64,000 bases of DNA from a virus (Duplodnaviria; Caudoviricetes), in IMG/VR virus record IMGVR_UViG_3300027754_000041, positions 1 through 64,000 of that record. The stretch is one strand, 5' to 3'. The notes beneath the pieces are model-generated. The model searched no databases. It saw nothing but the letters and a program-made list of their open reading frames with translations, and was not told where the DNA came from. This document shows positions 5,839 through 40,753 of the stretch, in pieces. The first letter of the stretch is position 1. The number at the start of each line of letters is the position of its first letter. The position numbers and the translations under genes are program-made.

Positions 5839-5911
5839 GCCTTGGTAGCTCAGGGGATAGAGCAACGGACTTCTAATCCGCAGGTCGTAGGTTCAATTCC
5901 TACCCAAGGCG
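5839..5911 (+). tRNA. tRNA-Arg(TCT)
   Basis: GCCTTGG/CCAAGGC acceptor stem, loop CTTCTAA, GTTCAATT T-loop. Confidence 0.93.
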
Positions 5912-5958
5912 CTCCAGTACAAACACAAAACAATGACTAACTAAGCATTGGAAGTACC

Positions 5959-12684: not shown

Positions 12685-14364
12685 ATGAATATAAAATTAC
12701 GCCCATATCAAACAGAAGCTCTTGAATCTATACAGCTACATTTAGATAAAGGCGTAAAAAAGCAGCTTGTTGTTCTACCAACAGGTTCTGGTAAAACTGT
12801 TATCTTTAGCAATATACCACAAACTATAAAAGATAGTTTACCTATGCTCGTTCTCGCACATCGTGGAGAATTGCTTACTCAAGCTAAAGAAAAGATTCTT
12901 TGGTCAAATCCTCATTTGGATGTTCAAATAGAAAAAGCAGAAGATACAGCTGAGCTCTGCGATGTTGTTGTTGCGTCTGTACCAACATTGGGTAGAGCAG
13001 ATTCTGAAAGAATTAAAAAATACCCTAAAGATTACTTTAAAACTATTATAGTAGATGAAGCTCATCACGCAGCTGCTGAAACATATCGTAGAATACTTGA
13101 TTATTTTCAACCTACATTTCTTTTAGGAGTTACAGCTACTCCTCAAAGATCTGATTCAGTAAGACTAACTGATGTATTCGATGAAATTACTTACTATAAA
13201 ACAATCCAAGATTTGATTAAAGAAGGATATCTTTGTCGTCTCATTGGATACAGGATTCAAACAGACACAGACATATCTGAAGTGGAGACATCTCATGGCG
13301 ATTACATTGCTTCCCAGTTGGAAGAAACTATTAATACTCCTTTGCGCAACGCTACTGTTGTTAAAGCTTATCTCGAATTTGCGCCGCAGCAAAAAGCAGT
13401 CGTTTTCGCAAGCGGAATACAACATGCCGCCGACTTGGCCACATCCTTTGCGCAAAAGCAAATACCTGTACGAGTAGTAATTGGTTCTACTCCAGATGAA
13501 GAACGTGCTCAAACGTTAGCAGACTTTTCTTCTGGAAAAGTTAAAGTTATTGTTAATGTTGGAGTTCTTACTGAAGGCTTTGATGAACCATCTATTGGGG
13601 CTATCATATTAGCAAGACCTACTCGATCTACTTTGCTTTATACGCAAATTGTTGGTCGTGGCACAAGAATCTTTGAAGGCAAAGAACACTGTGTAATTAT
13701 AGATATAGCAGATACCACTAAAGGCAAGAAGCCTTTGGGCCTGCCAACTCTATTGGGCATGCCTCCTGAATTTGATTTGAAGGGCAATGATCTAATTGAC
13801 GTTGCCGAAAAATATAAAGAACTTGAAGATTACTGCCCCGGTGAAGCCGTCCGCGTATTATCCCCTGATGATATAACATTAGCATATAAGAGAATAGATC
13901 TCTTTATGCCACCACCACCTAACGAAATTGTTAAAACTTATTCTCGTTTTGTTTGGGCGGAAGTAGCAGATTCTGATTTCCATTTAGGTATCAACGAAAA
14001 TGAATCCATCAGAATACACATAGACCCACTTGGCAGATGGACAACCACTCTTAAGCAGCGTTCAAAAGGTGTTTCTGTTGATACTATACTTGGTCATCCT
14101 GAAGATATGCGCGAAGCATTCGTCCGCACTGATAGATGGATTACCAGCAATAGATCATACAGTCTTAACTTACTTGATAATAACGCTGCTTGGCGTTCTG
14201 ATTCACCTACTGATAAGCAAGCTAAAATGCTTAAAAGAATGGGTGTTCCGATTACTGCCGACATGACTAAGGGCACTGCTAGTCAAATCATAACTAAATA
14301 CTATGAAGCTAACCCTAAACCAAAATGGTTACAGAATAAAATAGCTTCAAAAAAATGGAATTAA
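12685..14364 (+). CDS. SF2 DEAH-box helicase (ResIII/Irc3-like)
   Basis: LRPYQ Q-motif, PTGSGKT, DEAHH, TAT, TEGFD, QIVGRGTR. Confidence 0.95.
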   Translation: MNIKLRPYQTEALESIQLHLDKGVKKQLVVLPTGSGKTVIFSNIPQTIKDSLPMLVLAHRGELLTQAKEKILWSNPHLDVQIEKAEDTAELCDVVVASVPTLGRADSERIKKYPKDYFKTIIVDEAHHAAAETYRRILDYFQPTFLLGVTATPQRSDSVRLTDVFDEITYYKTIQDLIKEGYLCRLIGYRIQTDTDISEVETSHGDYIASQLEETINTPLRNATVVKAYLEFAPQQKAVVFASGIQHAADLATSFAQKQIPVRVVIGSTPDEERAQTLADFSSGKVKVIVNVGVLTEGFDEPSIGAIILARPTRSTLLYTQIVGRGTRIFEGKEHCVIIDIADTTKGKKPLGLPTLLGMPPEFDLKGNDLIDVAEKYKELEDYCPGEAVRVLSPDDITLAYKRIDLFMPPPPNEIVKTYSRFVWAEVADSDFHLGINENESIRIHIDPLGRWTTTLKQRSKGVSVDTILGHPEDMREAFVRTDRWITSNRSYSLNLLDNNAAWRSDSPTDKQAKMLKRMGVPITADMTKGTASQIITKYYEANPKPKWLQNKIASKKWN

Positions 14365-15124: not shown

Positions 15125-15210
15125 GCCTAGGTGGCGGAATAGGTAGACGCAAGGGGCTTAAACCCCCTCGGCTAGAAATGGCCGTACGGGTTCGACCCCC
15201 GTCTTGGGCA
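15125..15210 (+). tRNA. tRNA-Leu(TAA)
   Basis: Class II cloverleaf with long variable arm; anticodon loop CTTAAAC. Confidence 0.92.
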
Positions 15211-15255
15211 CTATATAAATCATTGTAAACTACATAAACTACTAAAGGATCTGAA

Positions 15256-16698
15256 ATGCGGATTAAAGATCGTTGTATTAAAATAATTCTAACGTTAACT
15301 CTTATATTACCAGTATTTGTTAACTCAAAAATCAATGCTGTTTCAGCAGGAGATGTTGCTCCAGCTACTACTGGAGTTAAATTTTATCCTAGCTTATCTA
15401 ATGCAATCCCTACAATGGGTGCAAATATTGCTTTTGACAGCAACTATCAAGGCCAAGGATCATATATCGTGATCATTGATACTGGCATTGAAGCTGTTCA
15501 CTCCTTTGTGGGTGGTAGAGTTGCTCTCCAAGCATGCTTCTCTGTAAAGTGTCCTAACGGCCAAAATTCTATGGTAGGCTCCGGAGCAGCTGTACCCGTA
15601 CATTGGCACGGCACACACGTTGCAGGCATTGCTGGTGGCTATTTAAATGCTACCATGCATGGTGTTGCTCCTAAAGTTGGCATCATTGCTGTAAACGTTT
15701 TCGGCTATGACGGTTCTGCAAGCGATTCAGATATTGTTCGCGCCCTTCAATGGGTTGATTCTATATCTGGTCAATATAATATTGCAGCCGTCAACATGTC
15801 ACTTGGTTCTTCTGGTATATTTAGAACTTCATGCAATTCTTATTTACCTGAACTTACATCTATCATTGCTACATTAAAGTCTAAAAATATTGCTACTGTA
15901 GTTTCTGCCGGCAATGACGGACAGCAAGGCATGAACTCTCCTGCCTGTATCACTGATACTGTAAGTGTTGCTGCAACCTATACTAATTCTTCTGGTCAAG
16001 AAAAAATAACAGACTTCAGTAATGTTTTAGATATTACAGACCTTTCTGCTCCAGGCTTAAACATTAACTCCTCTAAGCTAATGGGAGCATACGGTGCTGC
16101 TTCTGGCACATCTATGTCTGCGCCCATGGTTACTGGTGCTTTTGCAGTTTATCGATCCAAGTATGGTGTTCAATCTGTAGACAAAGTAGTTTCTGATTTT
16201 CAGAACACTGGTGTCAACGTCACCGATGACTATACTAAGATAGTTACCAAAAGAATTGATTTTAGGACACTGTTTGCCAATGGCTCTACACTTCCTCCAA
16301 CAACAACTATTCCCTCACCTACAACTACCCTTCCTAATTCACCAACAACTACAACCGTTCCTTCTCCAACAACTACTGTTCTTGAAGATGATGATCAACC
16401 AGAAAACTTTTTAAATATTCCGTACATATCACAAATAAAGAAATATTCTTCTAGAGTAAATTATATCTATTTAGACTTTACCTACAGGTATACTGATATA
16501 CGTGTTTCAAATTATATTTTGACATGCCGATATACAGACGGTACTACCATAGATAAAGTTATTCCCAATAGAAATATGATGCACTCAGTTTATGTTATTC
16601 CTATGAATACTACTTCAATTAGATCTTGTAGAATGTTAGCTGTTTCTGCAGTTGACGCTTCTAAGGGTCAATACACTCCATACGTAAAGGTAAAGTAA
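15256..16698 (+). CDS. Secreted subtilisin-like S8 serine protease with Pro/Thr linker and C-terminal beta domain
   Basis: IIDTG, HGTHVAG, SAGN and SGTSMSAP motifs; signal peptide; PxTTT repeats. Confidence 0.93.
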   Translation: MRIKDRCIKIILTLTLILPVFVNSKINAVSAGDVAPATTGVKFYPSLSNAIPTMGANIAFDSNYQGQGSYIVIIDTGIEAVHSFVGGRVALQACFSVKCPNGQNSMVGSGAAVPVHWHGTHVAGIAGGYLNATMHGVAPKVGIIAVNVFGYDGSASDSDIVRALQWVDSISGQYNIAAVNMSLGSSGIFRTSCNSYLPELTSIIATLKSKNIATVVSAGNDGQQGMNSPACITDTVSVAATYTNSSGQEKITDFSNVLDITDLSAPGLNINSSKLMGAYGAASGTSMSAPMVTGAFAVYRSKYGVQSVDKVVSDFQNTGVNVTDDYTKIVTKRIDFRTLFANGSTLPPTTTIPSPTTTLPNSPTTTTVPSPTTTVLEDDDQPENFLNIPYISQIKKYSSRVNYIYLDFTYRYTDIRVSNYILTCRYTDGTTIDKVIPNRNMMHSVYVIPMNTTSIRSCRMLAVSAVDASKGQYTPYVKVK

Positions 16699-16790: not shown

Positions 16791-16863
16791 TCCCAGATAG
16801 CTCAGATGGCAGAGCAGCGGACTGTTAATCCGCTTGTCGTAGGTTCGAGCCCTACTCTGGGAG
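16791..16863 (+). tRNA. tRNA-Asn(GTT)
   Basis: TCCCAGA/TCTGGGA acceptor; loop CTGTTAA. Confidence 0.93.
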
Positions 16864-17028
16864 CTATGATAAATCAAATTAAACACATAATCTTTCCCAA
16901 TGATTGGGACTATGATATCAGACCTATTATAATTTTTATGTCTGCTATTTTTTTAAATATAGTTTTTTATACTAGAAGTCAATGGAAATTCATAAAAAAA
17001 GATATCGATAGTGATTGGGAGTTATAAT

Positions 17029-17571: not shown

Positions 17572-17644
17572 GCGCTTTTAGCTCAGCCGGTAGAGCACCG
17601 GACTTTTAATCCGTTGGTCCTGGGTTCGAACCCCAGAGAGCGCA
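17572..17644 (+). tRNA. tRNA-Lys(TTT)
   Basis: GCGCTTT/AGAGCGC acceptor; loop CTTTTAA. Confidence 0.92.
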
Positions 17645-17727
17645 CAAAGTGTTTGAAATAAAAACATACAGTGATATGTATTTTGGCACAAGAACTAAAA
17701 ATAAAAAAACAATTAGAAAGAAAACAC

Positions 17728-19577: not shown

Positions 19578-19650
<73 letters not shown>

Positions 19651-19679
19651 CTATAACTATTATTAACAAAGGATATAAT

Positions 19680-21273: not shown

Positions 21274-21347
21274 ACTGCACGGGTGAGCTGGTCGAACACA
21301 GATGTCTTATAAACATCCATTGCGGGGTTCAAATCCCCGGTGCAGTA
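21274..21347 (+). tRNA. tRNA-Ile(TAT), non-canonical D-arm
   Basis: ACTGCAC/GTGCAGT acceptor, GATGT-CTTATAA-ACATC anticodon arm, CGGGG-TTCAAAT-CCCCG T-arm. Confidence 0.8.
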
Positions 21348-21366
21348 CTAATATTAAGGACCTCAC

Positions 21367-21738: not shown

Positions 21739-22485
21739 ATGACCAGCGAATCTTTTGCCAGCGATGATGATCTCTTTGGTTACGACCCATCTCAAGAATC
21801 ATCTTCGTTACCAATCAACCCTATCAACTCTAGTTCCGATTATTCTAATTCTGATATATTTCAAGACATTAGTAAACGGATAGATAGCTCTAAAGATAAT
21901 GATCTTATAGGATCGTTTACATTAAAGATACGCTTTGCTCAATCTTTACTTGAAGCGTACACAGAATTTGTTCAACCAACTACTATATCCTTTCATAAAG
22001 CCGTACATCAAACATTAGATAAATTGACTAATGGTAATTTTTCTCTTATATATATGTACAATTATTTAGAGCAGAATATTATTAGAAGACTACATATAAA
22101 ATATCTTATAGAAAGTTCTTTTCTTTCCGAAAATAACTCTTCTATAAGTTCAGATTTTAAGTCTTTTTTATCTAAAATAGGATTGGACATTGATTCTACT
22201 TTTATAAAAATTCACATCAAAACCAATATAGATATCAATAATCATATTCTAAATAATGAGCGATCTTTATATATGGATTTAGTAGAAAAATTATCTTATA
22301 CTCCACATCCTTTAATAGATAATCCAGAACCTAGCAATAATGACATCCATGAATCTATACCTAATAGTATTCAAGGGTATCATCAGGACATGTATGAATC
22401 TATTTTCATGGCTCTTGCAGATTCCAGCTATACAGATAAATTATCACAATTATATCTTAGCCCAGTAAAGGTGTCTCAATTATGA
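21739..22485 (+). CDS. Hypothetical protein
   Basis: 248-aa ORF. Confidence 0.7.
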   Translation: MTSESFASDDDLFGYDPSQESSSLPINPINSSSDYSNSDIFQDISKRIDSSKDNDLIGSFTLKIRFAQSLLEAYTEFVQPTTISFHKAVHQTLDKLTNGNFSLIYMYNYLEQNIIRRLHIKYLIESSFLSENNSSISSDFKSFLSKIGLDIDSTFIKIHIKTNIDINNHILNNERSLYMDLVEKLSYTPHPLIDNPEPSNNDIHESIPNSIQGYHQDMYESIFMALADSSYTDKLSQLYLSPVKVSQL

Positions 22486-22940
22486 AAAAGATAAAATTAA
22501 AAAGATTCTTTATAATGATTGCTTCAGCTTCTGCAGTCGCTGCAATAAATTATACAATTTTTCATACTAGCTTTGTATACTTTGCTTTACTGGTATTATT
22601 CTGTCATGAGTTAGGTCATTACTTTGCCGCTCGGATAAATAACATTTATTCAGATCTTCCTTATTTTATACCATTTCCAGTTATATCGTTGGGTATTACA
22701 CACATTCCTAATATGCGTAATCTATCAAATTCTTTGAAGAAAAAGATATTAGCTTACGGACCTATTACCGGATTTATGGTATCTATGTATTTTCTTTTCC
22801 TTTCCTTTATCTTTCCTTCCATCCCAACTTCCACTTTTTTGCTTCTTTCTATATCTGAATTTGTATTTAATTATTTTGGTTCTGACGGTAAAAAATACCG
22901 CTCAATAAACGAACAGGAAAATACATTATGTATTTTATAA
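22482..22940 (+). CDS. M50/site-2-like intramembrane metalloprotease, short form
   Basis: HELGH inside a TM helix, AYGP, GSDG. Confidence 0.7.
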   Translation: MKKIKLKRFFIMIASASAVAAINYTIFHTSFVYFALLVLFCHELGHYFAARINNIYSDLPYFIPFPVISLGITHIPNMRNLSNSLKKKILAYGPITGFMVSMYFLFLSFIFPSIPTSTFLLLSISEFVFNYFGSDGKKYRSINEQENTLCIL

Positions 22941-23748: not shown

Positions 23749-25389
23749 ATGGACAAAGTTTCTTACGCATTCGTTAAAGAAAAGGATAACTTGATTTTTA
23801 GATCTAAAGTTAATTCTTTTAATCTAGATCATGTTACCGATAAAGATATAGCTTCTTTTTATGCATCGTTTTCTGAATACGCTTATTTCGATACAGGACT
23901 GTTGCCACTTGATGGTACTGGCTTGTTAGGAATTAGGAAAGCTGGAAACCATACTCAGGTTATATATCAATATAAACCTGGTATGTATTATGTTAATTGG
24001 GGTGCTTCAGAGCGGGACCCCCATGCCAAGAAGTATTATCTAGCTCAACCATATCGTATTGTTATTATTGACTTCTTAGATAATAACCTACTAGGCGCTA
24101 GAACATTTTACTCTGTTGAGCCCGCAAATCATGGAGGCATACAGTTATACCATGTTAATCTTCCCAACATAAACTGTAAAGGTTATCGCGGCAATGGTGT
24201 TGGTTGGATATGCTTGTACCATAATGAAGATTGGTCTGCTTTGTCTTTCAACGATAGATTGAACAGGGCTCTTGAGCGTTGTTCGGGCGTTGAAGTTTAC
24301 AATGATGCCAACATGAGCGAAACCGATGGTCCAAGATTCTATGCTGAAAATGAAATGCCTGGATACACTTCTGTCCCTGAGCGATGGGAAAGAAAATCTG
24401 AATCAGAAGGCTATGAATGGACATTAGATGCCTCTGAATGGTTACCTATTTTAATCAAAGATAAAGATAATCAAGAAAAACATTATAACGATGGTTCCCC
24501 TCTTACTCTCGTCGATGCAATCACTGGTAATTACAGTGCATATTATGGTGACACATTTTTGCCAAAACCAATCAATGCTATAACCCGTCCCGATTTAAGT
24601 TTAGAGACCAGCCAGATTACAAATTGGTTTGTAAAATCTTACAACTCTTCTCTAACTACATTCTCTGGCATAGACCCATATTCTTCAAGCGCTGCGTATA
24701 AAGAAACTATTTCCATCACACCTGTCAATCCTCCTTCGTTATTTGACGAAGATGAAGACAATGAAGACGAAGAATCAGAAGAACAAGATAATGATATCTT
24801 TTGCCCAATGAGCGAAACTTGGATAAACTCTAGTGATTGTGGCCCACATATTGAACTTATTGTTCAAGAAAACGGAAACGAAACTAATGTTTGCATGAAC
24901 TGTGTTAATAATCATGGCATGGATTATGTTTATGTTAAAAATGCAATGAAGTTTTATGATTCAGATAGTAAAGATCTTGTTTATGATACGCTTTTAAATG
25001 AATATTATTTAATATCAGCAATTAAAAATCCTTGGGCAGTATGCACAAACTGTGAGTCTGTACATATAAGCATAGACAAAGATAAATTAGTAGTCAATGT
25101 TTGGGATAAAATTGGTGGAATTGATTTAGACGATTCTCAACCAAATCAAGTTTGCGAAAATTGTTACCCTAAATATACTTCAGATATTTCTGGTATAGGA
25201 AACGAAACCCATCTCGATTGCTGTGATCAGTGCTCTTGCTTTATGCCTTCTCAAGATTCTATATTTTGTGTAGATACAATTATTTCGGGATTTCAGGGAG
25301 TTCATTCCCAAAAGACCTGTACAACTTGTTCACATGTTATTTATAATCAAGCTGAAGTAAAGCCGTCTGATGACGAAGAACCATTCTAA
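23749..25389 (+). CDS. Prokaryotic E2-like protein (family D/PRTRC-B-like) with Cys-rich C-terminal region
   Basis: QPYRIV...LYHVNLPN...GWICL...N pattern; multiple CxxC; adjacent to JAB/E1/Ubl. Confidence 0.7.
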   Translation: MDKVSYAFVKEKDNLIFRSKVNSFNLDHVTDKDIASFYASFSEYAYFDTGLLPLDGTGLLGIRKAGNHTQVIYQYKPGMYYVNWGASERDPHAKKYYLAQPYRIVIIDFLDNNLLGARTFYSVEPANHGGIQLYHVNLPNINCKGYRGNGVGWICLYHNEDWSALSFNDRLNRALERCSGVEVYNDANMSETDGPRFYAENEMPGYTSVPERWERKSESEGYEWTLDASEWLPILIKDKDNQEKHYNDGSPLTLVDAITGNYSAYYGDTFLPKPINAITRPDLSLETSQITNWFVKSYNSSLTTFSGIDPYSSSAAYKETISITPVNPPSLFDEDEDNEDEESEEQDNDIFCPMSETWINSSDCGPHIELIVQENGNETNVCMNCVNNHGMDYVYVKNAMKFYDSDSKDLVYDTLLNEYYLISAIKNPWAVCTNCESVHISIDKDKLVVNVWDKIGGIDLDDSQPNQVCENCYPKYTSDISGIGNETHLDCCDQCSCFMPSQDSIFCVDTIISGFQGVHSQKTCTTCSHVIYNQAEVKPSDDEEPF

Positions 25390-25429: not shown

Positions 25430-27148
25430 ATGTCTGACAAAAAAGAAATATCACTTGAAGATCTACAATATTTTTGGATGCCTTCAGGAGTCCCATGCTT
25501 TATCGCTGACAATGACAATATATGCGATATAGTTGAAAACATGGGTTTTAATATTTATTATTTACTTTCTAATAAAAAAATTATTAAAGCACCAGTTGTC
25601 ACTACGCCAAAAAATACTACTGTAGTTTCTGGCACAGCATACAACTCCTACACGTTAGGTGCTCCAACTGCACCCCCACAGCCAACAGTAACATACGAAT
25701 CTTGTTTATTTAAGGTTGTAAACAATTTTGTTGGAAGAGTAGTTGAAGCTTCAACCGATGAACTTCCCGATACTTTCCTTTCTCTTGAGGAAGCATGTGA
25801 ATATACAATGCCACCTATACCTCATGTATTGGTAGAGAAAATGGATCAATTCTTTAGACTTGTCCATTCTCAGCACGGCACTGAATCAATAGTTCTTCTT
25901 ACTTTTGATATGAATAAAACTGGTTCTGATGGTTGGGGCATTCTAGTTCCTGAACAAACAAATACTTCCGTTCATTGCAAGTATGATGCTGACAGCATTG
26001 CTGAGATTAAACCAGAACATGTTATGATAGTTGGTTCTGTTCATTCACATCCAGAAATGTCTGCTTATGCATCTGGCACTGATCATGAAGATCAATCAGA
26101 TTTTGACGGCTTGCACATAACTTATGGTTGGCAGAAAACTATGAATCATGGAGCCACCCAATATCATATGGAACTTCAGATGTCAGGTACAGCTTATTCT
26201 CTCAAAGTTCAGGATGTTTTTGAGGAGTACATTGTAGAAAAAATACCTGATCCCGAAGTTGTAGAATGGTCCGGTAAAGTAAAAAAAGCGCTCCCCCCTT
26301 TAGCGGGGGGTACAACACCGCTGGCTTCGGCGCAGGCCCAATATCAACAACAGACAAAAACAATTTACTCAGCAACTGGGACAACTCATACAACGGCTGG
26401 GGTGGCTACAACTAAATCTTATTCTAATAGAAATAAATCTTGGGCTGATATGATCAATACATTAGAAGTTAATTCTATTGTAATAGGTGAAGTAGAAGCA
26501 AGAAACAGTAATTTTTCTGTTTGTCCAAGTTGCGATTTTGATTTAGATATGCCAGATTACACTTCTGGCTCATGTGGTGTTTGTGATATTCCAATTGTTT
26601 TGGAATCTGATGGCATACATGACATATCTTCAAAGTTCGAAAAATATTGTCAAGTTAGAAAAATTAATAAAAATTCTCTTATTGTTTATTTGTTTGGGTC
26701 AAATGATAAAGCTGAACAGTACTTAATGAAGATGAATTTTTCTGATGACGTCTTTCCTCATGCTACAGCTACAGATTATGCTTACGAAAAAGATTCAGAT
26801 TATGTTCATTTAGCTTCTGATCTATATGATGATGATGGCACTCGCACAATATGCTGCAACATACCAATGGAGGACTATTTGAGTGCTTGCTTTTGCCAAC
26901 CATCTGTGTTGCTAGAAGATTTAGTACTTTTTGAAAAATACACTGAGCATGTAGATTTGTATGCGCCAAACACTGTTTGCGGTGAATGTGTTCATTACCA
27001 TACATCATTGTGCCCAGACTATAGAAATCTTTTAATTGATTTTACTAAAAGCAATTTATTAGATTTATTTGAAGTTTCAAATTCTATTTCTCCATGTCCA
27101 AGTTACGAAAGTCTTTATATTACACTTGAAGCAGAATCAGAAAGATAA
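25430..27148 (+). CDS. JAB/JAMM metallopeptidase with Cys-rich C-terminal extension
   Basis: Upstream Glu (GTES) plus HSHPEMSAYASGTD = HxH-x7-S-x2-D; DGLHIT. Confidence 0.9.
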   Translation: MSDKKEISLEDLQYFWMPSGVPCFIADNDNICDIVENMGFNIYYLLSNKKIIKAPVVTTPKNTTVVSGTAYNSYTLGAPTAPPQPTVTYESCLFKVVNNFVGRVVEASTDELPDTFLSLEEACEYTMPPIPHVLVEKMDQFFRLVHSQHGTESIVLLTFDMNKTGSDGWGILVPEQTNTSVHCKYDADSIAEIKPEHVMIVGSVHSHPEMSAYASGTDHEDQSDFDGLHITYGWQKTMNHGATQYHMELQMSGTAYSLKVQDVFEEYIVEKIPDPEVVEWSGKVKKALPPLAGGTTPLASAQAQYQQQTKTIYSATGTTHTTAGVATTKSYSNRNKSWADMINTLEVNSIVIGEVEARNSNFSVCPSCDFDLDMPDYTSGSCGVCDIPIVLESDGIHDISSKFEKYCQVRKINKNSLIVYLFGSNDKAEQYLMKMNFSDDVFPHATATDYAYEKDSDYVHLASDLYDDDGTRTICCNIPMEDYLSACFCQPSVLLEDLVLFEKYTEHVDLYAPNTVCGECVHYHTSLCPDYRNLLIDFTKSNLLDLFEVSNSISPCPSYESLYITLEAESER

Positions 27149-27154
27149 AATATT

Positions 27155-27907
27155 ATGACAACTAAAAGATTTATAGTTATTGGTGCTGGCGGTATAGGTA
27201 CTTGGCTTACCGCTGGATTAGTTAGACTCTTGGAATGGAAATTTCCTGGATCCGCTCTTATTATTGTAGATGGAGATAATTATGAACAGAAGAATAAAGA
27301 ACGTCAAGAATTTACTAAAATTGGCAACAAAGCAGTCGTTAAAGCGCACGAACTCACACCGCAGTTCCCAAATACTACCATCATTCCGATTCCTAAATGG
27401 GTTGTATCCGAAGACTTTGGTGGAGTCACCACTGAAGAAGACGCTCCGAAAATTAAAGCTTCAGATCTTATTAATGAAGGAGATATTGTTTTTGCGGTTG
27501 TCGATAATTTTGCAGCTCGTAAAATAATATTTGATTCGGCTTCTCGGTTAAACAACGTAGATGTTTTTACTGGCGGAAATGATGATGCATTATTCGGTTC
27601 TGTTTATCACTATCAAAAAAGAGATGGTAAGCAGATAACTGAACATCCAGTTGCATTTCATCCAGAATACGAGAACCCACCAGACAAAAACCCTGGTGAG
27701 CTATCTTGTCAACAGCGTTCGGAGATAGAAGGTGGCACTCAATTACTTGCCACTAATATGGCCGTAGCTGCATTAATACTTGGTCGAGTACAGAAAACAA
27801 TTGTATTAGATCAAAGTCCTGAAGAAACAGAAATCTATTTTGATTTAGGTCTTGGAAAATCTGAACCATATAATAGATTGTTTACTTCTATTCCAGTAAC
27901 AGTTTAA
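27155..27907 (+). CDS. ThiF/E1-like ubiquitin-like protein-activating enzyme
   Basis: IGAGGIG, DGD, RQ, NKA, VDN..AR, candidate catalytic LSC. Confidence 0.92.
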   Translation: MTTKRFIVIGAGGIGTWLTAGLVRLLEWKFPGSALIIVDGDNYEQKNKERQEFTKIGNKAVVKAHELTPQFPNTTIIPIPKWVVSEDFGGVTTEEDAPKIKASDLINEGDIVFAVVDNFAARKIIFDSASRLNNVDVFTGGNDDALFGSVYHYQKRDGKQITEHPVAFHPEYENPPDKNPGELSCQQRSEIEGGTQLLATNMAVAALILGRVQKTIVLDQSPEETEIYFDLGLGKSEPYNRLFTSIPVTV

Positions 27908-27941: not shown

Positions 27942-28193
27942 ATGGAAAATCAATCAACTGGTCCTTCTGCAGCTCGTCCTGCAGGTATGGCTAATCTAAG
28001 ATTCGGTGTTTACAATCAGCCTACAAACGTAGCTGGCAAATCAGTTCAAGAAGCTCGTGAACAGTTTTCGAAAATTTGGGGCATCCCAACTGATTCCGTT
28101 GCATATAAGGGCAAGGATAAGCTCGATGAGAATTATGTTATCCAACCAGGTGACAACGTAGAGTTCCACCGTCGTGCTGGAGAAAAGGGCTGA
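27942..28193 (+). CDS. Ubiquitin-like beta-grasp protein
   Basis: 83 aa, YVIQPGDNVEF followed by a free tail ending AGEKG; strong RBS; follows E1. Confidence 0.85.
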   Translation: MENQSTGPSAARPAGMANLRFGVYNQPTNVAGKSVQEAREQFSKIWGIPTDSVAYKGKDKLDENYVIQPGDNVEFHRRAGEKG

Positions 28194-28290: not shown

Positions 28291-29895
28291 ATGTTATTTA
28301 ATGAAATAAAATTAGGTTATCCATCTTTGTGGCTTAAAACCACTGAATCAACAAGGGCAATCCAAAGTTTAACTACATATGATTTTAGAACTTTTTTTAC
28401 TATAGATTTTGAATTAGGTTTTTGCCAATATATTCAAGGTGCTTGGAAAACTATTCTAATTGATATTTTAAATCCAGAAACAGAACAAATAGTTCCAACA
28501 GCTACTTTTAATTCTGCTGTTGCTATGGATTACTTAATGAAGACAAAATTTGAAAAGCCTATAACCTTCATCTCTAATCTGCTAGGTAAGCCAGACGAAG
28601 CATTAGCTCCTTACATTCCTTTTATTTCTTTTCTAAATTCTAACTATCGTACAAATTTTTGGTTAGATGATGTCTCTGCTTCCAATAATCAAATCCTTTT
28701 TATTTCTTCTATTGACTGTCCAGAAGAATATACTCATATGTTTAAGAACATAGAGTTTTCTTATCCTACCCCTGAAGAACTATCTACTGTTGTTAATCAT
28801 ATAGATACATCTTCTGCTGGAAGGTTTGTCCAACAAGATTCTGTCAAAGAAATTGTTAGAGCTGGTTTAGGATTAACTGAAGATAAATTTGTTGATCTAT
28901 GTCTTCAATCTATTGTTCAAACAAATAAAGTTGATCCAAAATATATCTATGATCAAAAGATGCTTCAGATCAAACAGGCTGGAATATTGGAGATTATTAA
29001 ACCATCTATATCTTTTGCTAACATCGGTGGATTAGATAATATTAAAGATATTATTCAAAGAACCAAAGCATTGTGGTCTAACCGAGAACAAGCTAAGTCT
29101 TATGGTGTTGTTCCGATCAGAAGAGTATTAATGGTTGGCGTTCCAGGCACTGGTAAATCTGCTATCTGCCAAGCTACTGCGCATGAGCTAGGTCTTGATT
29201 TGGCCCGCACTGGTATCAGCCAAGTTATGAATTCTTTTGTCGGTCAATCAGAATCAAACATGAGAGCAGTCTTCAAGCAGATAAAGATGATGACTCCTTT
29301 ATGTGTTTGGATAGACGAGTTTGGCAGAGACCTATCAGGTGGTGCAAGTTCTTCTTCTGTAGATGCTGGCACTACTGACCGTGTTCATGGTGAGTTCTTA
29401 ACTGGATTGCAGGAACTTCCAGAAGATACATTCTTGATGTGTGCTGCTAACCAGATTGAAAACTTAAAACCAGAAATGTTAAGAGCTGATCGCTTTGACA
29501 AAATTGTTTTTGTTGGTCTTCCTTCTTTATCGGAAAGAAAAGATATACTTAAAATCTATCTTAAATCGATCAAGACTGACCATGAATTTGATTATGATAT
29601 TCTTTCTGAAAAGACTGAATTCTTTACTGGAGCCGAGTTATCAGCTTTAATTAAAGAAGTCAAGTTCTTTGTTGTTTCCTCTGAGTTGCGGGCTATCAAT
29701 ACAGCTGATATTATGAAGTATATTCCGTTAACAAAAAATATACTCTGGAATAAAAACAGAGATATGATTAAAGGCATGTACCAATATGCAATGGAACAAT
29801 GGGATTGGGCGTCGACAGAACAGCAAAACGATGCTAAACTGATTCTATCCGGAAGAAAGTCTGATTCTCAATTAGAGTCAGCTTGGAAAATATAG
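28291..29895 (+). CDS. AAA+ ATPase (Ycf46/CDC48-like; degenerate N-terminal plus active C-terminal module)
   Basis: IGGLD, GVPGTGKS, pore loop FVGQSE, WIDE, AAN, PEMLRADRFD. Confidence 0.92.
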   Translation: MLFNEIKLGYPSLWLKTTESTRAIQSLTTYDFRTFFTIDFELGFCQYIQGAWKTILIDILNPETEQIVPTATFNSAVAMDYLMKTKFEKPITFISNLLGKPDEALAPYIPFISFLNSNYRTNFWLDDVSASNNQILFISSIDCPEEYTHMFKNIEFSYPTPEELSTVVNHIDTSSAGRFVQQDSVKEIVRAGLGLTEDKFVDLCLQSIVQTNKVDPKYIYDQKMLQIKQAGILEIIKPSISFANIGGLDNIKDIIQRTKALWSNREQAKSYGVVPIRRVLMVGVPGTGKSAICQATAHELGLDLARTGISQVMNSFVGQSESNMRAVFKQIKMMTPLCVWIDEFGRDLSGGASSSSVDAGTTDRVHGEFLTGLQELPEDTFLMCAANQIENLKPEMLRADRFDKIVFVGLPSLSERKDILKIYLKSIKTDHEFDYDILSEKTEFFTGAELSALIKEVKFFVVSSELRAINTADIMKYIPLTKNILWNKNRDMIKGMYQYAMEQWDWASTEQQNDAKLILSGRKSDSQLESAWKI

Positions 29896-39032: not shown

Positions 39033-39108
39033 TTACTTTTTGCTTTTTGCTTCTTACCTATATATAATATCCAAAGCATACTATTTGGCAATTACTTAAG
39101 GATTAATA

Positions 39109-40677: not shown

Positions 40678-40753
40678 GCGGTTGTAGCTTAATGACAAAG
40701 CGAGTATGTTTCCGACCTACGAAATGAGGGTTTGATTCCCTCCAACCGCTCCA
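40678..40753 (+). tRNA. Atypical tRNA-Gly (TCC, anticodon loop TTTCCGA, enlarged anticodon arm)
   Basis: GCGGTTG/CAACCGC acceptor with U73 and encoded CCA (Gly identity); D-loop lacks GG; T-loop TTTGATT; 76 nt. Confidence 0.75.

Follow-up and report, generated by a model that had tools for sequence, protein, structure and literature searches.

A conserved cassette predicted to direct -1 frameshifting in the JAMM peptidase gene of a freshwater phage

The window analysed here is a stretch of 64,000 nucleotides (nt), positions 1 to 64,000 of the 171,522-bp IMG/VR virus record IMGVR_UViG_3300027754_000041, which comes from a phage (Caudoviricetes) found in freshwater and lake metagenomes. One of its + strand genes encodes a JAMM (JAB-type) peptidase followed by a Cys-rich domain. 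Directly after the JAMM domain, this gene contains the slippery heptamer A_AAA_AAA, a short spacer and a G-C hairpin, and the -1 frame that opens at the heptamer encodes a peptide of its own. Very probably, these elements direct a programmed -1 ribosomal frameshift of the dnaX type, by which one gene would yield both a protein of 328 amino acids (aa), consisting of the JAMM domain and a tail, and a protein of 572 aa, consisting of the JAMM domain and the Cys-rich domain. The cassette is present in every close homolog found, and it is the comparison of these homologs that carries the argument.

The slippery site and its reading frames

The features of the gene, all on the + strand, are as follows (ORF, open reading frame; AF2, the structure model; pLDDT, predicted local distance difference test score).

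25430-27148, + strand: 0-frame JAMM/JAB gene with C-terminal Cys-rich domain, the 572-aa long isoform (ORF list)
25430-26287, + strand: part common to both predicted isoforms, with the JAMM domain, residues 1-286 (AF2 model)
26279-26425, + strand: 0-frame linker, predicted to be disordered, residues 284-332, overprinted by the -1 ORF (AF2 pLDDT)
26281-26287, + strand: slippery heptamer A_AAA_AAA in X_XXY_YYZ phase (sequence)
26287-26415, + strand: -1 frame ORF, 42 codons plus TAA, predicted tail of the 328-aa short isoform (translation)
26288-26292, + strand: 5-nt spacer GCGCT (sequence)
26293-26310, + strand: putative stimulatory hairpin with C6 arm, TTTAGC loop and G6 arm (sequence and folding)
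26426-27145, + strand: Cys-rich C-terminal domain, predicted in the long isoform only (Cys residues of homologs and model)

Codons 284-286 are GTA AAA AAA (26279-26287). The two arms of the hairpin, CCCCCC at 26293-26298 and GGGGGG at 26305-26310, enclose the loop TTTAGC (26299-26304). After a slip of one base, translation in the -1 frame would add SAPPFSGGYNTAGFGAGPISTTDKNNLLSNWDNSYNGWGGYN (SAPPFSGGYN...SYNGWGGYN) and then reach the TAA stop at 26413-26415. This -1 ORF contains no ATG, GTG or TTG, and a -1 frame stop, TAA at 26275-26277, is located just upstream of it. The first-pass annotation had described the A7 run, the 5-nt spacer, the C6/TTTAGC/G6 hairpin and a -1 frame open to 26413-26415, all of which were confirmed from the sequence and its ORFs; its product sizes are also correct, 328 aa being the sum of 286 and 42 codons and 572 aa the length of the full ORF.

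Such an arrangement is rare in this genome. The window has a single match to the pattern A7-N3-8-C5-N3-14-G5, none of 100 dinucleotide-preserving shuffles has any, and within the whole record this is the sole slippery heptamer plus hairpin that has a long ORF on both sides together with a long open -1 frame. The GC content at 26250-26400 is 0.51-0.54, versus about 0.36 in the surrounding window sequence. A search of Rfam gave no family match at 26000-26700. As a separate observation, tRNA-Lys(UUU), the decoder of the AAA AAA codons of the slippery site, is among the seven tRNAs encoded by the phage.

Conservation of the cassette

Scans for homologs gave 16 loci from viral contigs (several of 170-268 kb), 7 from binned genomes, and 80 that were retained out of 167 relatives from metagenome contigs; a tblastn search against the GenBank phage collection found no relative. 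The close set consists of the window and 97 homologs (L001-L097), which are 37-60% identical to the query. Their overlaps comprise 85 distinct sequences, and the proteins fall into 69 clusters when grouped at 90% amino acid identity; the representatives of these clusters have pairwise identities of 36-90% (median 43%). Counts out of 69 given below refer to these representatives.

An in-phase A7, a C-run/G-run hairpin and an open -1 frame are found together in 98/98 close sequences. Retention of the A7 and hairpin in homologous JAB genes, the check proposed in the first-pass annotation, thus extends through all 69 clusters. At the site itself, GTAAAAAAAG is present in the window and in 93/97 loci, GTAAAAAAAT in three loci and TCAAAAAAAG in one locus. 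Six remoter JAMM proteins (L098-L103) are encoded without the cassette.

Constraint on the RNA signal

The nucleotides of the signal are conserved beyond what the 0-frame protein would fix, and synonymous variation is suppressed across the GTA, the AAA AAA and the rare CCC and GGG codons. In 69/69 representatives the A-run has a length of exactly 7, and the base after it is G in 67/69. The codon that precedes the heptamer is GTA in 68/69, whereas GTA makes up 23% of the Val codons in other parts of these genes, and the Val codons located six and seven codons before it are free to vary. Both Lys codons are AAA in 69/69, as compared with 66% of the Lys codons elsewhere. In the C and G runs the codons used are CCC and GGG, which account for 10% of Pro codons and 2.8% of Gly codons, respectively, in the rest of these genes. 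Furthermore, the bases that flank the runs remain C or G despite changes in the 0-frame residue, with Leu, His or Phe before Pro-Pro and Ala or Gln before Gly-Gly. In the stretch 4-20 nt before the heptamer, no column is conserved beyond the coding signal.

The C-run begins 3-7 nt after the heptamer, the distance being 5 nt in 50/69. When each representative is folded by itself, a hairpin forms in 69/69 with a median of -13.9 kcal/mol (range -6.0 to -21.1), a stability that is equalled in just 0.4% of other 45-nt windows of the same genes. In many lineages the stem is extended by further pairs (GU..AC, GC..GC, UGCC..GGCG, AG..CU). In an arm-swap test, native arms were more stable than chimeric ones in 50/69 (mean 1.09 kcal/mol; Wilcoxon p 6e-5). 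One compensatory pair change separates L008 and L093 (GCUGC...GCAGGC) from L053, L056, L062 and L069 (GCAGC...GCUGGC). In the -1 frame the change is synonymous, L008 and L053 both reading STPPAAVAGGG there, but the 0-frame protein has Leu and Gln exchanged.

The A7 is also unchanged in RNA and DNA contigs that cross the site. A metatranscriptome contig of 1,076 nt covers 25547-26637. It represents a natural strain variant with a 15-nt deletion at 26413 (26413-26427), by which the 0 frame is maintained and the -1 frame again meets a stop, now TAG, where it had ended before. The slip site is also bridged by a DNA contig.

The peptide encoded in the -1 frame

The -1 ORF has a median length of 36 codons (range 27-48), and at other positions of the same genes the -1 frame is open for an equal length in 0.5% of cases on average. 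Ser, Gly, Tyr, Thr, Pro and Asn are abundant in the peptides it encodes, which contain 1.74 motifs of the form [GSN][YFW][GSN] per peptide, while the other frames contain none. In an alignment of the 69 tails, residues S1, P4, G8, Y35 and W38 are each at least 90% conserved. The last two belong to a Y-x-x-W motif near the end of the peptide, after which come one to a few residues, and the -1 stop always falls within a few codons of it. A Trp is found among the last 6 residues in 61/69 for the -1 frame, as compared with 0/69 for the 0 frame and 7/69 for the +1 frame.

Substitutions in the overlap follow the codons of the -1 frame. In 16 disjoint close pairs, positions 1, 2 and 3 of the -1 frame codons carry 47, 20 and 56 substitutions, whereas in the upstream JAMM region, which served as a control, the corresponding numbers by 0-frame position are 42, 14 and 282. 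Since position 3 of the -1 frame is the most substituted (56), the most variable site in the overlap is position 2 of the 0 frame. Judged from these sequences, the -1 peptide is under selection at the protein level. We also infer that G324, the lone nearly invariant residue of the 0-frame linker, is a shadow of the -1 frame Trp: a TGG in the -1 frame forces a GGN in the 0 frame, so that G324 is nearly invariant and a T is fixed at a 0-frame wobble site.

A start codon is found within the -1 ORF in 8/69 representatives, and a -1 frame stop lies directly upstream in 51/69. With so few internal starts and with these upstream stops, the tail would be reachable only from the 0 frame. No second protein with the same tail was found in the 171,522-bp genome. 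A second recoding event, by which ribosomes would return from the -1 to the 0 frame, was considered and rejected, because the last sense codon and the stop context vary; among 40 listed -1 stop contexts, the commonest has 3 occurrences among 69.

The JAMM protein and its domains

The gene product is predicted, from motifs and from the structure model, to be a JAMM/MPN+ deubiquitinase-like protein. Residues 144-234 match Pfam Prok-JAB (PF14464) with an E value of 7.7e-5 and 23 bits, below the 25-bit gathering cutoff, and in precomputed Pfam annotation 24/64 database homologs carry PF14464. The catalytic motif, E ... H-x-H-x(7)-S-x-x-D, is present, and the metal-site residues E152, H205, H207, S215 and D218 are invariant in the 69 sequences. 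The AF2 model of the 572-aa protein has a mean pLDDT of 79.6, and Foldseek matches it to Rpn11-like, CSN5 and AMSH chains with a probability of 1.00 (E values: 6fnn_B, 2.1e-6; 8tyx_B, 7.3e-6; 5u4p_B, 1.0e-5). In addition, the protein has an N-terminal extension of about 140 residues. No useful family for it was found in PHROGs, PADLOC or NCBIfam.

The JAMM/JAB domain itself is made up of residues 1-283. According to the model, its last helix comprises residues 275-283, pLDDT is below 50 over residues 284-332, and it is high again from residue 333. The slip site is thus placed by the model exactly at the boundary of the JAMM domain, and the overlap coincides with the low-confidence linker 284-332. 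In the 0 frame this linker is variable and rich in Thr, Pro, Ala and Gln.

Beyond the linker is the Cys-rich C-terminal domain, in which the alignment of homologs reveals invariant Cys pairs. When its 240 residues were modelled alone, the mean pLDDT was 85.8. Searches gave no clear fold in the PDB (best Foldseek E 0.24, best VIA Z 4.1) and no usable match in the ESM Atlas.

Proposed mechanism and alternative explanations

In the mechanism proposed, ribosomes that translate the JAMM/JAB gene would arrive at GTA AAA AAA, and the C6/G6 hairpin, 5 nt downstream, would resist unwinding. In some passages both tRNA-Lys would slip one base back on A_AAA_AAA. Shifted ribosomes would then read 42 further codons in the -1 frame and stop at 26413-26415, releasing a 328-aa protein with a Ser/Gly/Tyr-rich tail that ends in Y-x-x-W. 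Unshifted ribosomes would continue through the disordered linker and the 240-residue Cys-rich domain to give the 572-aa form. The outcome would be two deubiquitinase-like isoforms with one catalytic domain and differing C-terminal modules, in the setting of a conserved phage module made up of an upstream Cys-rich protein, the JAMM protein, an E1, a ubiquitin-like protein (Ubl) and an AAA+ ATPase.

The first-pass annotation had claimed a short and a long isoform made by a -1 frameshift at a set ratio. Conservation, synonymous constraint, codon periodicity and the Y-x-x-W motif all support the two isoforms; that ribosomes actually shift at the site, and do so at a set ratio, is what we infer. 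Several further points weigh against frameshifting. The 52-nt stretch of the window that contains the signal (-16.1 kcal/mol) is no more stable than its own dinucleotide shuffles (z -0.44), so that the significance of the signal rests on the comparison of homologs and not on the window alone. The GC content of the overlap is 0.57 versus 0.36, and the +1 frame is likewise open, with a median of 27 codons; since the GC-rich stretch opens the +1 frame too, an open frame by itself argues little for recoding. In both frames, the C-run is read as Pro-Pro and the G-run as Gly-Gly, which makes the core stem inseparable from coding constraint. Its C-G pairs, moreover, are invariant, and the covariation comes from the stem extensions alone; being invariant and encoding the same amino acids in either frame, the core pairs are uninformative on structure. 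No consensus structure emerged from the 69 stretches of 50 nt, in a MAFFT alignment that was ungapped and that, with loops of differing length, misplaced the 3' arms. An upstream element like a Shine-Dalgarno (SD) sequence, sought as a 4-mer 4-20 nt before the heptamer, is found in 31/69 and is not conserved. The RNA evidence consists of contigs, in which a minor species with A8 would be invisible, and DNA carry-over in RNA libraries is possible.

A further point against frameshifting is the database protein P0001 (324 aa, 62% identical, from a 10,285-bp contig), which carries the tail in the 0 frame. Its sequence, ...KVKKAFPLSGG...DWDAGWGI, is the outcome expected if the region of the C-run and loop were 2 nt shorter. 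P0001 is either an assembly indel in a homopolymer or a natural allele or lineage that makes the short form only and has no need of a shift. In three other database homologs (P0003, P0004 and P0007), the protein either ends or continues as unrelated sequence at most a few residues from KVKK, which suggests that assemblies often break at the A7, the C-run and the G-run.

Among the alternatives, transcriptional slippage survives best and has a small probability. Here the polymerase would add one A on the A7, and normal translation of the A8 transcripts would produce the same short isoform. A homopolymer is present, the product would be identical, and the contig-level RNA is compatible with a minor A8 population. 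However, known sites of transcriptional slippage favour longer runs, and here the run is never longer than 7. A stable hairpin at 3-7 nt with compensatory changes is needed by ribosomal frameshifting and not by polymerase slippage, and the single RNA-library contig over the site has A7. Collectively, these features argue for slippage by the ribosome rather than by the polymerase.

Even less probable is the idea that nothing is recoded, that the A7, C6 and G6 simply follow from a K-K...P-P...G-G peptide and a linker of high GC content, and that the open -1 frame is incidental. The KK, PP and GG are indeed conserved in the 0 frame, and both the open +1 frame and the single-sequence fold, which is not significant, accord with this idea. 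Yet it is contradicted by the synonymous positions that are frozen (GTA in 68/69, AAA AAA in 69/69, and the rare CCC and GGG), by an overlap whose most variable codon position is position 2 of the 0 frame, and by a -1 frame motif, Y-x-x-W, that is at least 90% conserved, has the -1 stop always within a few codons, and through its Trp codon requires a T at one wobble position of the 0 frame.

The two remaining alternatives have a minimal probability. In the first, the hairpin and the complementary T7 would form an intrinsic terminator on the minus strand that blocks antisense transcription through the operon. A consensus scan did call such a site at 26310-26293, with 6 G-C pairs and then AGCGCTTTTT, but the T-run begins 5 nt past the stem, which is poor geometry for a terminator, and the scan gave 2 terminator-like sites versus 1.0 expected in shuffles. 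Furthermore, all 26 ORFs of at least 150 aa before position 39,100 are on the + strand and minus-strand ORFs are found from 41,104, and a terminator leaves the conserved -1 peptide and the codon phase of the A-run unexplained. The second is a small overlapping gene that would have a start of its own in the -1 frame. It would fit an ORF conserved at the protein level but not the frequent -1 stop upstream (51/69), the scarcity of ATG, GTG or TTG inside it (8/69, and none in the window), or a conserved heptamer and hairpin located exactly at its 5' end.

The surrounding module

The JAMM gene is located in a cluster of + strand genes, of which the following are its neighbours.

23749-25389, + strand: 546-aa protein encoded upstream, Cys-rich in its C-terminal part, with E-x-P-F as its conserved end (ORF list and homologs)
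27155-27907, + strand: ThiF/E1-like adenylyltransferase (Pfam ThiF, E 3.3e-11)
27942-28193, + strand: 83-aa putative ubiquitin-like protein ending ...FHRRAGEKG (ORF list)
28291-29895, + strand: CDC48/PAN-like AAA+ ATPase (Pfam AAA, 2.1e-23; NCBIfam CDC48, 5.5e-34, under the curated cutoff)

These neighbours are retained in most of the 68 representative loci, the counts being limited mainly by locus length. The E1/ThiF-like gene is directly downstream of the JAMM gene in 67/68, the Ubl-like 83-aa gene is present in 58/68 and the CDC48/PAN-like AAA+ ATPase gene in 54/68, and the 546-aa protein is encoded upstream, on the same strand, in 56/68. The assignment of the 83-aa protein as a putative Ubl comes from its size, its position and its terminal Gly; its C-terminus is GEKG in 56/56 homologs found. 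The E-x-P-F ending of the upstream protein is kept in most of its 56 homologs.

Database searches place few of these proteins in known families. Searches of Pfam, NCBIfam, PHROGs and PADLOC gave no family for the upstream 546-aa protein, and the Ubl-like protein has no useful family in PHROGs, PADLOC or NCBIfam. The PADLOC models (CBASS Cap2/Cap3 and other E1-E2 systems) do not match the JAMM protein, the Ubl or the upstream protein; the E1 alone gives a weak E1-E2 match (E 2.6e-4). By these profile comparisons, the module belongs neither to the PADLOC defence systems nor to the PRTRC system, which is considered below.

Near the extreme C-terminus of the AAA+ ATPase there is a conserved aromatic residue, mostly Trp (...AWKI, ...SWKI, ...TWK, ...WTTK), in about 46/51 homologs. 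This Trp-containing end resembles the W-containing end of the -1 tail, and a shared docking site is possible.

Relatives in a sister clade

A sister clade (P0016-P0061 and L098) consists of JAMM proteins of 396-432 aa with 35-48% identity, encoded on contigs of up to 245 kb. After the same K-K junction these proteins have, in the 0 frame, a linker rich in Ser, Gly, Tyr and Thr, such as ...KKTYNTTTTTSSGYMGVGSGSQGYAGG..., followed by a smaller CPFC...RRC..CH domain. The A7 and the hairpin were not found at the K-K junction of L098. In composition, the linker of the sister clade resembles the -1 tail of the clade with the cassette.

Possible role of the two predicted isoforms

A reading that joins these observations, and which we regard as speculative and unlikely, is that the frameshift serves as a stoichiometry switch for a phage machine that resembles the proteasome lid or a Cdc48 adaptor, with a tail descended from the ancestral JAMM linker. 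Were this so, the Cys-rich domain of the long isoform would anchor the JAMM peptidase to one partner, and the short isoform would dock by means of its tail, a C-terminal peptide that ends in Y-x-x-W. The tail and the C-terminus of the ATPase (...AWKI) could compete for the same receptor pocket, given that the aromatic end of the one resembles the W/F-containing end of the other. The Ser/Gly/Tyr tail may be the ancestral linker, a similar one being part of the 0 frame in the sister clade; if it is, an old coding frame would survive only via recoding.

Other features of the genome

The seven phage tRNAs are encoded at 5839-5912, 15125-15211, 16791-16864, 17572-17645, 19578-19651, 21274-21348 and 40678-40753. 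Genes upstream of the module include a ResIII/helicase gene (12685-14364) and a gene for a subtilase, Peptidase_S8 (15256-16698). The translation of 22482-22940 is a hydrophobic protein of 152 aa with HELGH, which looks like the HExxH of membrane metalloproteases. At 62405-62440, a second A7 precedes a strong hairpin, ACCCCCACC TTTAA GGGTGGGGGT (about -19 kcal/mol), and then TTT. Since the frames there are short and a long ORF is absent, this is more likely an intergenic terminator than a site of recoding. Outside the window, two minus-strand frames at about 150043-151047 and 152764-153690 end in the nearly identical C-terminal peptides ...YTFTGGTGTVSW and ...YTFTAGTGTVSW, and they appear to encode paralogues of a structural or fibre type.

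Significance

To our knowledge, few well-supported -1 frameshift sites of bacteria and phages are available beyond those of insertion sequences, dnaX and tail chaperones. The comparative support for the present site is strong, since it comes from 69 lineages down to 36% identity. As it stands, recoding of an established type is predicted in a phage Ubl-E1-JAMM-AAA module that had not been described before; in literature searches that covered titles and the openings of abstracts, no report was found of recoding in a JAB/JAMM gene or of this phage module. Annotation of these large freshwater phages would miss a conserved protein isoform. The many stem and loop variants also offer a natural model of A_AAA_AAA with a simple G-C hairpin for the study of frameshift efficiency. 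Finally, the site draws attention to the module itself, with its Ubl, E1, JAMM peptidase, Cys-rich protein and CDC48/PAN-like ATPase.

Comparison with known systems

As a protein, the JAMM product is most readily compared with the JAMM/MPN+ deubiquitinases, such as Rpn11, the Rpn11 homolog of Caldiarchaeum and a bacterial Ubl deubiquitinase (8tyx). It shares with these the invariant E...HxH...S..D and a matching fold, and its gene adjoins genes for E1-like, Ubl-like and AAA+ ATPase proteins. It differs in its very low sequence similarity, its N-terminal extension and its unique Cys-rich C-terminal domain. The best NCBIfam matches of the module are to the PRTRC system, PRTRC_A for the JAMM protein (E 6.5e-5) and PRTRC_ThiF for the E1 (E 1.5e-6). 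However, the scores are 22.6 bits against a curated cutoff of 101.8 and 27.7 bits against one of 144.75, so far below these cutoffs that the module is not a PRTRC member, and the gene content differs as well.

As a recoding site, it can be set beside three kinds of -1 frameshift. In the phage tail assembly chaperones of the G/GT type, a -1 shift gives a longer fusion. There, as with the site predicted here, a -1 frameshift is conserved and its position is kept across very diverged phages, but the longer shifted product is a structural assembly chaperone, whereas here the shifted product would be shorter and would be a JAMM peptidase of a Ubl module. The bacterial frameshifts of copA(Z) and csoS2A/B release a truncated form. 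Like the site described here, they lie at a domain boundary, and they free the N-terminal part beside the full-length protein, as the phage site would; they differ in heptamers, stimulators and protein families, and the short form here would gain a conserved trans-frame peptide.

The comparison with dnaX of E. coli (tau/gamma), which the first-pass annotation had drawn, holds for the general type of event, while the detail is presumed. Both sites have an A-rich X_XXY_YYZ heptamer read by tRNA-Lys, a short spacer and a downstream stem-loop. The shifted product, which for the phage gene is a predicted one, is in each case the shorter of two isoforms that share their N-terminal part, the C-terminal domains being absent from it. 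In dnaX, an SD-like sequence upstream stimulates the shift, and a stop is met almost at once, after a single extra residue. The site in the phage gene differs in that its heptamer is A_AAA_AAA followed by G and not an in-phase A_AAA_AAG, and in that the upstream SD-like element is not conserved (31/69). It also differs in that the shifted frame adds a conserved, motif-bearing tail of 27-48 residues, and in its setting, which is another gene family, in a phage.

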